A stretch of DNA of 64,000 nucleotides from Massalongia carnosa (lineage: Eukaryota). The DNA is taken from the NCBI GenBank assembly GCA_965645245.1, contig OZ287067.1, forward strand, positions 2,480,001 to 2,544,000, in the 5' to 3' direction. Below, in pieces: positions 4,113-40,872 of this stretch. The position numbers and the translations under genes were made by a program. Below the pieces are notes generated by a model. It had not been told where the DNA came from. It worked only from the letters and a program-made list of their open reading frames with translations, and did no database searches. Every line of letters starts with the position of its first letter. The stretch's first letter is position 1.

Positions 4113-4812
4113 TCTATCTTTGTTTAAATGAATAGTTGACGGTATAATGTTGAAATTACTACGGAGGTGACTGCTTATAGCAGTCATGGCAGCCTGCAGG
4201 GCTGAGCTAGAACTAATGGGGCTAAGCGAGTATCCCAACAATCTTGGCTAATATTAGGCTTTAAGCACGATTTAAGATCCTAAAATGTAACTGTGATCTG
4301 AGCTCTAACCTATGAGTCCACCTTGAGATATTTAGACTACCAAACACCTTCGAGATCAACACATTCATAGCTCTCTCTCGATTTTCAAATTTTGGAGTTT
4401 GCAACAGCTAAGCAGAGTATTAGCCTGCTTTACGCAGCGCAAAAATAATAGCTTCTTGGCACATCCAGATTGCACTTGACGGTTTGGGTGAATGTTTAAT
4501 AAAGCTAAGTGATCTTTCTTGTGTTCTTCTACGTAGTGTGTCCAATGGAAGCTAGATGTTGCCATAGTGGGGACTTTGATATTCTCCCACTTTGCCGCTT
4601 CGAGGCGAAGCTGAAGTATCGAGGTGTGCACGATGAAGTCATCAATAACGAACAGACGAACCCCCTCGCCGATTAGGATGTATCCAACAGGATCGTGAGT
4701 ATTGATAATGTTGGAATACTCGCTTAGCCCCATTAGCTCTAGCTCAGCCCTGCAGGCTGCCATGCCTGTTATCTCAACATTATGCCGTCAACTGTTTATT
4801 TAACAGATAAGA
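4113..4812. repeat. Inverted duplication (arms ~4113-4240 and ~4708-4812)
   Basis: CATGGCAGCCTGCAGGGCTGAGCTAGAACTAATGGGGCTAAGCGAGTATCCCAACA (4185-4240) recurs as a reverse complement at ~4709-4764 with 2 mismatches; a second weaker block (AGTTGACGGyATAATGTTGA) extends the match. Confidence 0.85.
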
Positions 4813-11358: not shown

Positions 11359-11776
11359 CGTTTTCGGACGAACACGCCTTTGTACTCCAATCAAGCAATT
11401 CAATGATGACTCAGCACGGGATGAAGGTATTCGAGATGAGAGACTACACCAAGGAGAAAGGTATAGGGATTGAGGCTTTACGACGTGGTAGGAAGGAAAG
11501 GTTGAAGCAGTGGGGATTAGAACATGAGAATGCGCGCGGAAGGATTGAATCGCCAGTCGGAAAAGCATGTAACACGAGATGAACTCAAGGAATGAGTCAA
11601 TGGGATGGATGACCAACGATCAATGGAAACTGTCAAGGTACTGTCAAGACAATCAGGTCTCTATCTGACCCTTCTCTCTCCAAATATCGTATAGGAAGTA
11701 CCGAACCAGTAAGACATACCGGAGTACTCGTACACTATACAGGGTATGGTATTCAAATACGGAGTACTTTGAATGG

Positions 11777-13091
11777 CACGCGGGGGACAAAAAAAAAACT
11801 ACACCAAAATTTAACCGGGTTCAACCCCCCACCAAAACACAAGCAATTTCCATACAATTTTGATGGGATAATCACCATTTCAACAACCAGTCATCCAATT
11901 CATTCAATCTATTCAATAACCAGTCATTTTACCCTCACCATCCAAAACAGCTCTCAATCTATCTGGCATAGTAGACACCCGTTCATTGATAAATGCCTGG
12001 GAAACGTTCGCCCACCCCTCATAAATTAGCCCCTTGGTCGTATCATCATCCCAATGAGGATATTTTTTTAAATATTGCTTCGGGGCCTGCCAGCAATTTT
12101 CTATGGGGGCCAAATCAGGTGAACATGGACAGTTGAAATAGTGCTTCAGATCGTTGTTCTGCTTCCAAGTGCGTACAATGTTTGATTTGCCTGGTCCATG
12201 TCCAGAATCACCGTCTTCTTCTAAGACGAAATCGTGTTTTGCTTCAATCCAGGGCTTCACAATAGGCTCCAATATAGAGTCGATATAGACTCGTTGACTC
12301 ATCTTTCCATTGGAGTTTCCAGGAACTCTGTAAAAGTAGATATCTGACTTGAAGTCATGATCTGCAGCAGCCCAACAGTGATGTCTCTTCTTGGCGGCCT
12401 CGTCTGGTTCATCTGCTTCTTGAATACAATCATGACAATAACGTTCACCTAATCTTCGTATGATGCGTAATTTGCCCTGAGGTCCCCATCCAAAGTGCAC
12501 TTCGTCACTAAATCGAACTTGTTTCCAGTCTTCTGCATTTGGATATCTAGAAAGCATAGCATCTGACCACTTCATACGAAGCTTTCTTGTCTTCTCGTTC
12601 ACCCATCCCTTTCTGCACGCAATGCATTTGTGATAATCCATGGTGCCCATGATTCGTTGAATGGTTTTGCCACTGCAGTCTAGGCCTACTTCGAAGCCCA
12701 ATTGCTCCCATGTAAGAGCGCGCGCCTCCATACCTTCTTCTTCCAATAGCCGTTCCATTTCTCTAATCAATTTAGGCGTAACAATTTTGTGACGCCCACG
12801 AGCTTCAGAAACATCGGAATTATTATGATGACGGCGTGATGAGGCTCCTTCACGCAGGTATGCATAGCCCCTCGTACGTTCCACATCAAATGTGCGAAAA
12901 ACATCCTCTTTGTGATAAGAAATGCCTTGCTTTTCGCAAAATTCAACGGCTCCCTGAATTTTAGCTTTGGTAGGAGTCTCGATATGTTTAGAATTCATAA
13001 TAATGATAATTATCCCATCAAAATCTTGTGTTTTGGTGGGGAGTTGAGCCCGGTTAAATTTTGGTGTAGTTTTTTTTTTGTCCCCCGCGTG
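11777..13091 (-). mobile_element. Intact Tc1/mariner-superfamily (IS630-Tc1-mariner) DNA transposon, 1315 bp, 67-bp TIRs, 5-bp AATGG flanking duplication
   Basis: TIR CACGCGGGGGAC-(A-run)-CTACACCAAAATTTAACCGGGyTCAACyCCCCACCAAAACACAAG at 11777-11843 and inverted at 13025-13091 (2 mismatches); AATGG at 11772-11776 and 13092-13096; internal transposase ORF. Confidence 0.95.
11913..12998 (-). CDS. Tc1-like DDE transposase (DD37E spacing), 361 aa, uninterrupted
   Basis: W-x-x-VRFSDE, LEEDGDSGH and CSPDLAPIENCW motifs; 37 residues between the second D and E; ATG 12998 lies inside the element (the track's 13100 start lies outside the TIR). Confidence 0.93.
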   Translation of the reverse strand: MNSKHIETPTKAKIQGAVEFCEKQGISYHKEDVFRTFDVERTRGYAYLREGASSRRHHNNSDVSEARGRHKIVTPKLIREMERLLEEEGMEARALTWEQLGFEVGLDCSGKTIQRIMGTMDYHKCIACRKGWVNEKTRKLRMKWSDAMLSRYPNAEDWKQVRFSDEVHFGWGPQGKLRIIRRLGERYCHDCIQEADEPDEAAKKRHHCWAAADHDFKSDIYFYRVPGNSNGKMSQRVYIDSILEPIVKPWIEAKHDFVLEEDGDSGHGPGKSNIVRTWKQNNDLKHYFNCPCSPDLAPIENCWQAPKQYLKKYPHWDDDTTKGLIYEGWANVSQAFINERVSTMPDRLRAVLDGEGKMTGY

Positions 13092-13256
13092 AATGGGCAC
13101 GACTTTCGTATCTCGAGCCGCTAAACTTCAACCCTGTTTCTCGGCTTGCACAATAAATTACAGAGTACAGATACCAATACCGGCCGACGTCTTTGGTAAC
13201 ACACAAATGTCGTCTCTCATCGATTTCCATCTCCAGATCGGAGGCTCTCTTTAGCC

Positions 13257-14945
13257 ATGGCCGCCTTGTCTGTTCCCTCGGAAATATCCCACTCCGCCTT
13301 ACCCGCCTCCCCCTTCCTCTCTCCGCCGCCCACCGCACAGGCAGACTCCCTGGCCATTCTCCATCTGAAGCGTGATCTTTTAGTCCCCGCCATCCTCCGC
13401 TCACACGACGATCGCAACGAGGGCTATTCCGAAGGAAAGGTGACCAACACGCGCTTTGGCTCTTTTCCTCACAGCACTCTTATTGATGTGCCATGGGGGT
13501 CCCAGGTACGGGCTTCAGCCGTAGATACGGGGTCAAGAGGTCGTAGGGGCGAAGGTCCTAGCGGGAAAGGCAAGAAGCGAAAGCGAGAGGCGGCGGAAGA
13601 AGTAGATAATCCGGTGGTTTTAAGAGAAGCTGATGATAGAGGAGATGATGATCCCGAGGATGAGGGAGCCGTCGTTCCTCAAAAGGCTGCGGTGATGGCT
13701 TCAACTGGCTTTGTGCATCTCCTCCCCCCCACGCCAGAAATCTGGACTGCATCGCTACCTCACCGCACGCAAGTAGTGTACACGCCCGACTATAGTTATA
13801 TTTTACAACGAATACAAGCCAGGCCCGGCAGCGTTCTCATCGAGGCCGGCGCAGGGAGCGGTTCCTTCACACACGCGGCCGCCCGCGCGGTATTTAACGG
13901 CTATCCTGAGACTACGCAGCCGCGTCTGCGGAAAAAATGGGGTAAAATATGGAGTTACGAATTTCACGAGCAAAGGGTTCAAAAGCTGCGGGCCGAGATC
14001 AGGGAGCACGCCTTGGACGGTATTGTGCAAGTTACGCACAAGGACGTGTGCCAAGACGGATTCAGCATTGATAACAGCACCGCTCCCTCGGATGTAAACG
14101 CCACCGCTATCTTTCTTGATCTCCCCGCCCCCTGGCTTGCGCTTAAACACTTGACTAGAACCTCAACCTTCATCGCCTCTCAAACCCCAGGACCAGGGCC
14201 CAACAATTCGCCCCAGCAAGCTGGGTCAGACTCTTCCCAAGTCCTCGACCCTACCTCTTCAATCCACCTCTGCACCTTCTCCCCCTGCATCGAACAAGTC
14301 CAACGCACCGTCGCTACTCTCCGCAAGGCCGGCTGGCACGACATTGAAACCGTCGAGTTGGCCGCCAAACGCATCGAAACCAAACGTGAGCGCGTCGGCT
14401 TGCAGGAAGAGGGCCTCCGTGGCGTCAACGCTTCCCCAGCCTCCGTCGACGAAGCAGTTTCTCGGCTCCGCGAACTCGAGGGTTGCGCACGGGTCTTCCA
14501 CAACAACGAAAACGGCAACGACATCAATGAACCTAGGGCGCCGAACAGCACGTTAGGATCCGTTTCCTGTCCGGCCGTGACGGGACCAGTCTCAAAACAG
14601 CAGCGGCTGGAGAATATTCAAAAGGCGCTTGAGGGACGGAAACTCTACAATGAGGGTCGCTTGGTGCATCGCGCGGAGCAGGAGCTGAAGATGCACACGT
14701 CGTACCTGGTGTTTGCGATCCTACCCAGGGAATGGAGCGTGGCGGACGAACTAGCAGCGCAAGAGAAATGGTCCGGCCAAGTTCCGGGAGCGGCGGGGGC
14801 GGGAGCAGGGATGACAAAGGGGTTTGCCGCGCCGGTGAGTAAGCGACAGATGAAGAAGGCGGCAAAGGCGAAGGCAGGGGGGAATAAAGCATTTGAGCTG
14901 AAAATTGTGGAGGAGGATGAGGACCGAGAGCTCCCAACATCTTGA
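13257..14945 (+). CDS. TRM61: tRNA (adenine-58 N1)-methyltransferase catalytic subunit
   Basis: TRFGSFPHS, PTPEIWTASLPHRTQVVYTPD, EAGAGSGSFTH (SAM motif), FLDLPAPW, FSPCIEQV, HTSYLVFA. Confidence 0.95.
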   Translation: MAALSVPSEISHSALPASPFLSPPPTAQADSLAILHLKRDLLVPAILRSHDDRNEGYSEGKVTNTRFGSFPHSTLIDVPWGSQVRASAVDTGSRGRRGEGPSGKGKKRKREAAEEVDNPVVLREADDRGDDDPEDEGAVVPQKAAVMASTGFVHLLPPTPEIWTASLPHRTQVVYTPDYSYILQRIQARPGSVLIEAGAGSGSFTHAAARAVFNGYPETTQPRLRKKWGKIWSYEFHEQRVQKLRAEIREHALDGIVQVTHKDVCQDGFSIDNSTAPSDVNATAIFLDLPAPWLALKHLTRTSTFIASQTPGPGPNNSPQQAGSDSSQVLDPTSSIHLCTFSPCIEQVQRTVATLRKAGWHDIETVELAAKRIETKRERVGLQEEGLRGVNASPASVDEAVSRLRELEGCARVFHNNENGNDINEPRAPNSTLGSVSCPAVTGPVSKQQRLENIQKALEGRKLYNEGRLVHRAEQELKMHTSYLVFAILPREWSVADELAAQEKWSGQVPGAAGAGAGMTKGFAAPVSKRQMKKAAKAKAGGNKAFELKIVEEDEDRELPTS

Positions 14946-38959: not shown

Positions 38960-40872
38960 ACCGTGCGACCGAGGAAACCCCACCTTTGGTAGTGGACCGC
39001 ACCTGGAGCTACGCTCCAGGTGCGGCTCACCTCCATGACGTTATCATCTCCATGACGCATTTCTCAAACTATTTACATTATATCCATTGATTGACCCTTT
39101 TTAAAATGAAGCTATTCAAAATCAAAGGCTGACGTTCATCTATCCAGCTTTCGGCCTTTTTACCCACCAAGCCAAACCGTTTAGCTATCGCTTTTCCATA
39201 GAGAAATATTTTCTTTTGTCTAGCCGTCTCAGCACGCTTTTGACGACCCTCCTCCCTTTCCACCTCTTCTTGGGTACGATGTAGGTGATTGTGCCTCACA
39301 TCTCGAACGGTAACGATTCCTCCCTTCTGAACAACGGTGCCAGCAAGCTTTTTTCGGGCCCTTTTAGCTAATGCAGCTGTGTGTGTGGCTTGCAAGTCGC
39401 GTTGCGTCAATTCTAGTAAATTAGCGTTTGCAACCGACCCTTTGATAAAACGTCGCATTCTTTCTGGAGTAATTTCTTCATTATTATTCATTCGCTGAAT
39501 AATGTTTTCCCCTTCCTTAGCAACGTCTTTGGGCTTTTTGGGGGTATGAGGTAGGATTATTGTCTCCGAAGATGATATTGGTAGTGGTGGTAATGCCGGA
39601 TTTAAAGCACGAATTTTGGTCAAGACTACCTCCGGATTGTAAGGTGTCAACCCAGTTTTTTCCCAGGCTGATTTGATAGTAGATGATTTGAATGCCTTTG
39701 TACGAAATTGATTGAATGCGGCCAGAAAATCCAGAGGATTGAAGTCAACGTCACCCAACCGAATGGCGTTGTCAACCGCTTCAGCATGATAATGTTTCAT
39801 TGGCTGAAAACACCAGCGTCTAATGGCTGCGTCAAATGGGTTGAATGGGGGGTAATCTGAATAAACAGATCTTATTTTCTTTCGAATATTCCCAAAATTC
39901 ATACGTTAGATGAGATCCATATCCATCGAACAAAAGAAACATAAACGCTCCTTTTTGAACCTTTTTTGAATGAGCATTAAAATGCTTTAACCACTCTAAT
40001 GCTAGAAAATCATTTGAATAGCCGCTATCGCTTGTAGTCAACACGATATCATCTTTCAAATCATTCTCTAAGGCTTATTTGTGAAGTATGTTAACCCCTT
40101 TCAAAATCAAAAAGGATAGAACGCTTCCGCCAACTCCATTGATGCATTCGACCGATGTTATATAGTCTCGATTGTCTGGATCAGCGATCATAATTAGTTT
40201 ATGTGATGATAGTGTCATCACCAAATAGGTTACCCCACAGCCAACTCGAAAGCCTGTCTCATCCATATTCCATATATCATCTGGAGTTATACCAAGAAGG
40301 GCTACAGTCGATTGAAATGAAGAGAGATAAGTTTGAATATCCGAAACATTGTGAGCGTTTTTCCTTTCGGCTGCTAAAGGCTTGCCTTTTTGCATGAAAA
40401 ATTGGGGATTTCTTTTCAAGAATCGTCCGGTCCAGCAATTTCCTACGCGGGTGAGAGAAGATGAAGACGAGGAAGGATGTTGCAATTGCAACAAATAATT
40501 AGCTGCACCGCGAATCAATGGCAATCTCATTGATAATTCAATATCACAAGAAATTCAATATACTCCTTCAGGGCTAGTTCTAGTGCAGCAGACAGCCTCA
40601 TATTGACTGCTTTTCGCTTGCTATATCCATGTAGTCTTCTTTGAAATAAGACGAGGTGAAATATCGAATTCATTGGCACAGGCTGCGGCTGATTTGTATG
40701 TGTTCTTTGCAAATGCATCTAAGGCCTTTGCAATGTTAGCCTCTCGTTTCTTGTACGAATCAGACATGATGTGGTTGAATAATAAATGGTTGATGATAGA
40801 TGATAGAAATTTTTTAAAAATGCGTCATGGAGATGATAGCGTCATGGAGGTGAGCTGCTCTGCTCGCACGGT
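38960..40872 (-). mobile_element. Inactivated pogo/Fot1-family DNA transposon with TA TSD
   Basis: TA at 38958-38959 and 40873-40874; TIR ACCGTGCGA..GCTCACCTCCATGACGyTATCATCTCCATGACGCATTT with internal CTCCATGACG direct repeat; transposase fragments IWNMDETGFRVG, SGYSND, LLFDGYGSH, CFQPMKHY. Confidence 0.92.
39078..40767 (-). pseudogene. pogo/Fot1 transposase (HTH-CENPB + DDE_1) broken by frameshifts and a stop
   Basis: Four ORF pieces (40527-40718, 40075-40530, 39832-40059, 39078-39902) in shifted frames; TAA at 40075-40077 at an expected Trp position (LHK*). Confidence 0.88.

Follow-up and report, generated by a model that had tools for sequence, protein, structure and literature searches.

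Tc1-like transposons with 5-bp, non-TA target-site duplications in Massalongia carnosa

The element in the window

A stretch of 64,000 nucleotides of the Massalongia carnosa genome (contig OZ287067.1, positions 2,480,001 to 2,544,000), here called the window, contains a Tc1-like DNA transposon inserted between two copies of AATGG (Table 1). Duplication of TA is the textbook mark of Tc1/mariner elements and is used for classifying them. At this element, TA is absent from both junctions. Its termini are CACGCG and CGCGTG, and AATGG adjoins them on either side, as the initial annotation had claimed.

That annotation also described near-perfect terminal inverted repeats (TIRs) of 67 bp. For the copy in the window this is correct, the outer arms being 97% complementary and the longest inverted repeat of the window. 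It does not apply to the family: the siblings exceed this copy by 13 bp, and the match between their TIRs extends over about 100 nt. Because of the deletion listed in Table 1, the TIR of the window copy is split into arms of 67 and 23 nt. The open reading frame (ORF) of the transposase is indeed uninterrupted, and 37 residues lie between D262 and E300, which agrees with the D..D-37-E triad initially noticed. Compared with the family majority, the protein carries V202A, which occurs in 8 of the 22 full-length copies, and G213D, which is found in the window copy alone and affects a position at which at least 90% of 44 relatives agree. The deletion and G213D may together have impaired this particular copy.

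Table 1. Features at the insertion site; positions refer to the window
Feature	Position	Strand	Remark
Transposon	11777-13091 (1315 bp)	transposase gene on minus strand	copy of the 5-bp-duplicating family, between AATGG duplicates
Left target-site duplication AATGG	11772-11776	+	single copy in the empty allele of run X4
Right target-site duplication AATGG	13092-13096	+	read from the window letters
Intact TIR, about 100 nt, starts CACGCG	11777-11879	+	downstream of the transposase gene
TIR upstream of the start codon	13002-13091	-	copy-specific 13-bp deletion between 13024 and 13025
Outer arms of the inverted repeat, 67 nt	11777-11843 / 13025-13091		
Inner arms of the inverted repeat, 23 nt	11857-11879 / 13002-13024		
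Transposase ORF, 361 aa	11913-12998	-	uninterrupted; triad D165/D262/E300
Host intergenic region	11569-13256	.	about 370 bp when empty (1688 minus 1320)

Duplications in the family and its relatives

The genome holds about 40 near-identical copies of the element. A DNA search, in which 40 of 279 candidates were scored, yielded 30 full-length loci of 97-100% identity, and every one of them is flanked by an exact 5-bp duplication. Two further full copies were found, one with matching 5-mers and the other (L031) without. An exact search with the terminal 19-mer detected 79 ends in the genome, against none with a reversed control. Eight more pairs, within which other DNA is inserted, all show the 5-bp match; three ends remain unpaired. 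Altogether, the 5-bp duplication is exact in 39 of 40 paired copies and TA is present in none, while a chance match of 5-bp flanks is expected about once in 1000 copies (0.25^5). The 5-mers vary by copy, and AATGG is no part of the element.

Sites without the element tell the same. When 32 copies were tested, a single uninterrupted 5-mer was seen in paralogous repeats for four insertion sites (L007, L010, L027/L028 and L029), and a fifth (L003) was off by 1-2 bases within a run of C; for the remaining copies no paralogue of the insertion site was found, and none of the paralogous sites showed an excision footprint. Four public runs (X3-X6) were compared with the window for the orthologous site, which X5 and X6 do not cover. 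In run X4, a lichen metagenome from another study, one contig joins position 11768 to 13092 with three letters between them. This allele has one AATGG and a net loss of 1320 bases, i.e., the element plus 5. Run X3 carries the insertion. As the empty alleles hold a single 5-mer and X3 and X4 differ in presence, it was insertion that created the duplication, and the locus is polymorphic. Of the three outcomes that the initial annotation had named as refuting its reading (TA flanks or shared 5-mers at other copies, AATGG as part of the element, two AATGG in the empty orthologous site), none was observed.

The family appears to be young. Median pairwise identity among its copies is 99.7% (9 of 435 pairs are identical), the 361-aa frame is retained in 22 of 32 copies, and no signature of repeat-induced point mutation was found in the family: 24 of 62 C-to-T changes are at CpA, which makes up 37% of C contexts. 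The genome holds at least 10 Tc1-like families, many with open frames. The data support recent spreading, and present-day activity of the family is probable. Of the suggestion that the element may still be active, recent activity of the family is thereby supported, by its identity, its open frames and its presence or absence between samples; this applies less to the window copy, given the TIR deletion and G213D. No RNA dataset was listed as carrying the element. Runs X5 and X6 contain a near-identical element under other organism labels; horizontal transfer was considered and not concluded, since pieces of the flanks, also identical, occur at low depth in X5, and the depth in X6 is 2.

Judging from sequence matches, the clade is widespread in ascomycetes. 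The transposase matches 422 proteins at E 1e-10 or better, and among the best 120 of these Pyrenophora, Bimuria, Clathrospora, Ophiobolus, Macroventuria, Rutstroemia, Botrytis and Colletotrichum are named; Pyrenophora tritici-repentis has many copies. A profile search with the clade gave 474 clusters at 1e-30. In sister families of the same genome (52-72% amino acid identity; 40 loci given), 18 of 30 paired-end loci have an exact 5-bp duplication and none has TA. From 320 metagenome loci 80 were kept, of which 37 lacked a TIR pair, 8 lacked an anchored end and 35 were anchored; the 30 distinct ones comprise 17 with an exact 5-bp duplication, one with 7 bp, 12 unmatched and none with TA. The 5-bp families start differently (CACGCG, CAAGCG, CTCGCG or CAAGTG). 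Their spacing between the second aspartate and the glutamate is 37-39 in most members and 34-46 overall, so DD37E, the label first given to the lineage, is not diagnostic.

Counted over target sites with an exact 5-bp match, there is a loose, symmetrical preference for a T/A pair at -5/-4 and +4/+5, and the core between them is rich in GC; the pattern approximates TA-N-CCWGG-N-TA. After symmetrising the sites, T and A prevail at -5 and -4, and C never occurs at -4. TA occupies -5/-4 in 22 of 56 half-sites of the window family (background mean 3.6, maximum 9), in 21 of 42 of the sister families (background mean 3.8) and in 8 of 26 of the metagenome relatives (background mean 1.1). In the same order, the GC content of the core is 64, 65 and 72%, versus 47, 42 and 53% for the whole site.

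More distant Tc1-like families of this genome behave canonically. For families F, G, H and I (F and G at about 25% identity; 33 loci given), the same procedure yielded 27 paired copies; 25 of them have TA at either end, and none has matching 5-mers. The D-E spacing is 34 in three of these TA families, and family H is DD41E. Family J (L317-L339, e.g., G000:C13:425914-427308) is again different. It is a Tc1-like DD38E family of about 1.4 kb with ends CACAG/CACGTG, and 13 of its 18 paired copies have copy-specific 3-bp, non-TA duplications (GGT, AAC, ACG, GTT, GAC, TCC); one copy has 4 bp, and four have none in a fixed register. Several J copies begin with CACAGTG at one end, a sequence identical to the heptamer of V(D)J recombination signals.

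The tree comprises 34 proteins, none of them a named reference transposase, and 358 columns, and is rooted on one weak match from a prokaryote assembly. In it, the 5-bp clade has a support of 99.8/100 and is nested among the DD34E and DD41E TA families of the genome, which supports the idea of a distinct fungal lineage. Its sister (90.8/92) unites family J and, on a long branch, three context-free proteins (93.3/93), and the TA families H and G branch next (98.6/100 and 85.7/96). The 5-bp clade thus reads as a descendant of TA-specific Tc1-like elements that has lost TA specificity. Possibly this loss happened once and the staggers diverged thereafter.

Two candidate marks of the switch were discarded. 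A shorter distance from the TIR end to a conserved inner TIR motif does not explain it, as TA family F has the register of the 5-bp clade. Neither DD37E nor two CxxC motifs distinguish the clade, as the TA families G and H have CxxC motifs and H is DD41E.

The protein itself has the Tc1/mariner fold and triad. Pfam DDE_3 covers residues 163-318 above cut-off (31.8 vs 28.6); the N-terminal, helical DNA-binding region gives HTH_Tnp_Tc3_2 at 91-146, under the curated cut-off. A comparison of 44 relatives shows the triad to be conserved. The protein also has two CxxC motifs, at 125-128 and 188-191, which are conserved and may bind zinc. The sole sequence match in the PDB is SB100X (E 3.5e-17). A structure model (mean predicted local distance difference test (pLDDT) 79.6, predicted template modelling score 0.60) was searched with Foldseek and best matched Mos1 complexes (E 5.6e-11, 15% identity, full-length), followed by Sleeping Beauty (1.5e-9) and SETMAR. 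Compared with the TA families, the 5-bp clade has replaced the linker proline and W-P-x-x-SPDL. Family J likewise lacks the linker proline and has kept the short loop and P-P-x-SPDL.

Interpretation and alternatives

The departure from the TA rule within this Tc1-like branch is real, well supported, widespread in ascomycetes and recently active here. Of the usual attributes of IS630-Tc1-mariner (ITm) elements, the homologous DDE transposase and the single ORF between TIRs are present, and TA duplication is seen in 0 of 40 copies. Very probably the element is an autonomous cut-and-paste ITm transposon belonging to an ascomycete clade that arose from TA-specific Tc1-like ancestors and engages its target in an altered way.

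Several observations weigh against this view or narrow it. Copy L031 has unmatched flanks, and three ends are unpaired. The exact 5-bp match is missing from 12 of 30 loci of the sister families and from 13 of 30 metagenome loci, some of which are mis-anchored or lie on short contigs. The same host-repeat site was reused in L009/L011, L018/L293, L027/L028/L033 and L029/L037; as several copies sit in host repeats, the insertion sites are not all independent and the true number of events is somewhat lower. The three letters just before AATGG in X4 differ from the window, so this allele is not the exact pre-insertion state. Two inverted sister-family copies about 10 kb apart (L073/L074, G000:C12:909-921 kb) have swapped 5-bp flanks, which would be expected if the intervening DNA had been inverted by recombination or aberrant transposition. 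A clade member on a metagenome contig (L188) shows, as a single case, a 7-bp duplication, CCCAGGT. The tree, as said, does without named references; the residue correlates derive from four TA families and one switch on it, and P0145, a member of the 5-bp clade, retains the linker proline. The pLDDT of the model falls below 50 at 174-194, precisely the clamp-loop region. Finally, we infer the 5-nt stagger from the duplications alone.

The flanks of two close relatives of L188, L189 and L193, both on short contigs, do not match, and those of L184 agree in 6 of 8 positions. Searches of the M. carnosa genome for basal sub-branches, possibly with 7- or 8-bp duplications, returned known families only. 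The genome's best DDE_3 matches (L111-L140) yielded nothing usable when compared with the clade profile and the TIR pair, and were set aside. A broader scenario, in which an undescribed ascomycete branch of Tc1-like elements lost TA recognition once and then diversified its stagger into a 3-bp sub-branch, its 5-bp sister and possibly a 7-bp sub-lineage, is a tentative picture that falls just short of being the probable one.

Certain sites in host repeats (those of L018, L293, L259, L009/L011, L027/L028/L033/L080 and L029/L037) received multiple insertions, also from different families, and at one host-repeat motif a TA-type element and the 5-bp family occupy overlapping positions.

Following established DDE chemistry, a transposase dimer would bind the TIRs and excise the element, the 3' ends of which would be joined to the two target strands, at phosphates offset by 5 nt; gap repair by the host would then create the 5-bp duplication. 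How the stagger could have changed is suggested by Mos1, in which R186, F187 and K190 of the clamp loop are described to stabilise the 147-degree bend of the target at TA, the flipped adenine being read by backbone atoms (PMC5481204). H187 of Sleeping Beauty aligns with Mos1 R186 and is reported to influence target choice (PMC8934666). These roles were transferred to the clade by motif, not by direct alignment with Mos1. The change might accordingly reside in the target-binding surface, i.e., in the altered linker and clamp loop. Speculatively, the target would be less sharply bent, without adenine flipping, and the attacked bonds would come to lie 5 bp apart; a gentler bend of this kind would also explain the GC-rich core.

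The likeness to the Tc1 family (Sleeping Beauty, impala of Fusarium oxysporum) comprises a size of about 1.3 kb, one ORF of 340-370 aa with HTH_Tnp_Tc3_2 and DDE_3, the FSDE and SPDL..IE..W motifs and D-x5-H following the second aspartate; among solved sequences SB100X comes closest, and the nearest genome relatives, at about 25% identity, are TA-duplicating Tc1-like elements. Impala is likened by description, not by sequence. Unlike DD34E Tc1, the element makes a variable, GC-rich 5-bp duplication and has a spacing of 37-39 (37 in the window copy) instead of 34. Mos1, the best full-length structural match, differs in being DDD, and its 147-degree bend at TA and adenine flipping do not fit a GC-rich 5-bp core (PMC5481204). 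Mosquito (ITmD37E) elements are described as restricted to invertebrates and as duplicating TA (PMC10379824), whereas here the relatives are ascomycete and the duplications 5 bp. Further DD37E families are TRT, L18 and L31; TRT was set against the element by citations only, not by sequence.

TA is given as the ITm rule, with TAA, TAAA, TATA and the 3 bp of Zator as exceptions, in the consulted passages of PMC9977792, PMC11544213, PMC11887251, PMC3538342, PMC2836289, PMC7386202, PMC8533490 and PMC10045372. Fot (TAA), Fot-like (TAAA), Sailor (TATA) and Zator (3 bp) elements are thus precedents within ITm for leaving the 2-bp TA rule (PMC7386202, PMC8533490, PMC10045372). The words of Fot, Fot-like elements and Sailor are, however, fixed, AT-rich and start with TA, in contrast to the present duplications of 5 bp with no set sequence. 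The third triad residue, E, and the Pfam result, DDE_3 and HTH_Tnp_Tc3_2 without DDE_1 or a CENP-B-type domain, also set the element apart from pogo/Fot.

The biology might be as described and the family nevertheless already be catalogued with its 5-bp duplication, be it as Mariner/Tc1 or Sagan in Repbase, in the fungal DD37E/TRT branch or in the impala group. This is a case to be reckoned with, if on the improbable side. The clade is common in sequenced ascomycetes, with P. tritici-repentis as the prime example, so curators may have met it. According to PMC10379824, fungi are among the hosts of DD37E/TRT, and PMC7325037 classes impala as DD37E. The tree file of the latter, however, does not include P. 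tritici-repentis, Rutstroemia, B. deweyae or KDN61748, and a 2023 paper on Repbase families, in the part consulted, gives TA duplications for ITm generally (PMC10045372). Members of the clade are, moreover, mislabelled in their sources: P0060 and P0046, from P. tritici-repentis and Rutstroemia records, are annotated as HMG box protein. In the full-text literature searched, no Tc1/mariner lineage with a 5-bp duplication was found; Repbase, Dfam, subscription papers and preprint supplements lay outside this search.

An unrelated enzyme that makes 5-bp duplications, either Transib/RAG-like or a long terminal repeat (LTR) integrase, might instead move the element in trans, with the Tc1-like ORF as cargo; this is very improbable. 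Transib elements have CAC ends and GC-rich 5-bp duplications, and the present family shares both. LTR elements make 5-bp duplications, too (PMC2817418), and repeats with such duplications in Sordaria, Smini1/3, are regarded as solo LTRs by their authors (PMC2851567). The terminal repeats of our element are inverted, though, not direct. The interval between its TIRs is filled by the ORF, the relatives share the triad, and across families of as little as about 40% identity the 5-bp trait goes with the transposase tree, although the TIR starts vary. Nor do size and fold of the transposase resemble Transib/RAG: among the matches listed there is no RAG1-core-like Pfam hit and no RAG or Transib chain from Foldseek. 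Transib is also reported to be absent from fungi (PMC5751038). The likeness to Transib is taken as convergent.

That the true ends lie elsewhere, with a duplication of TA or shorter, or that the 5-mers stem from assembly or recombination, can practically be dismissed: TA is enriched two bases beyond the duplicated 5-mer, but this outer TA is single on each side of the empty site and not duplicated, the copies cease to match exactly at CACGCG/CGCGTG, the empty sites give exactly 5, and the same procedure recovers TA in the TA families.

Tools that rely on the length of the duplication would call a 5-bp element of this kind LTR-derived or unclassified. With a 5-bp clade beside a 3-bp family and TA families, the target stagger can change within the Tc1/mariner scaffold, and the 2-, 3- and 5-bp families offer matched proteins for structural and swap experiments. 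If the reading is true, this natural series on one scaffold makes the determinants of duplication length and TA specificity testable. An enzyme of the size of Sleeping Beauty with a GC-tolerant target might also become a transposon tool with a target range unlike that of Sleeping Beauty.

Surroundings and minor observations

Searches beyond the fungi gave little. Viral contigs contained no relative by protein or alignment search, plasmids no match, and prokaryote genomes 7 weak matches of 25-39% identity, none of them close. As the prokaryote matches are all weak, no bacterial IS630 source with the 5-bp trait was found.

At the insertion site, the neighbouring genes are divergent. They encode a cysteinyl-tRNA synthetase (first ORF starting at 11568, minus strand) and a tRNA methyltransferase, GCD14/TRM61 (starting at 13257, plus strand). 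The transposon lies within the short upstream region common to both housekeeping genes, with distances of about 200 and 160 bp to the respective first ORFs.

The window contains two more elements. The one at 39022-40858 is 1.8 kb long, has 47-nt TIRs and a broken minus-strand ORF (151 + 274 aa), and looks pogo/Fot-like by eye; neither piece of the ORF has a Pfam match at 0.001. The other, at 4177-4772, is non-coding and measures about 600 bp. With TIRs of 64 nt (94%) and TA adjoining both ends, it resembles an ordinary miniature inverted-repeat transposable element of the Tc1/mariner type.
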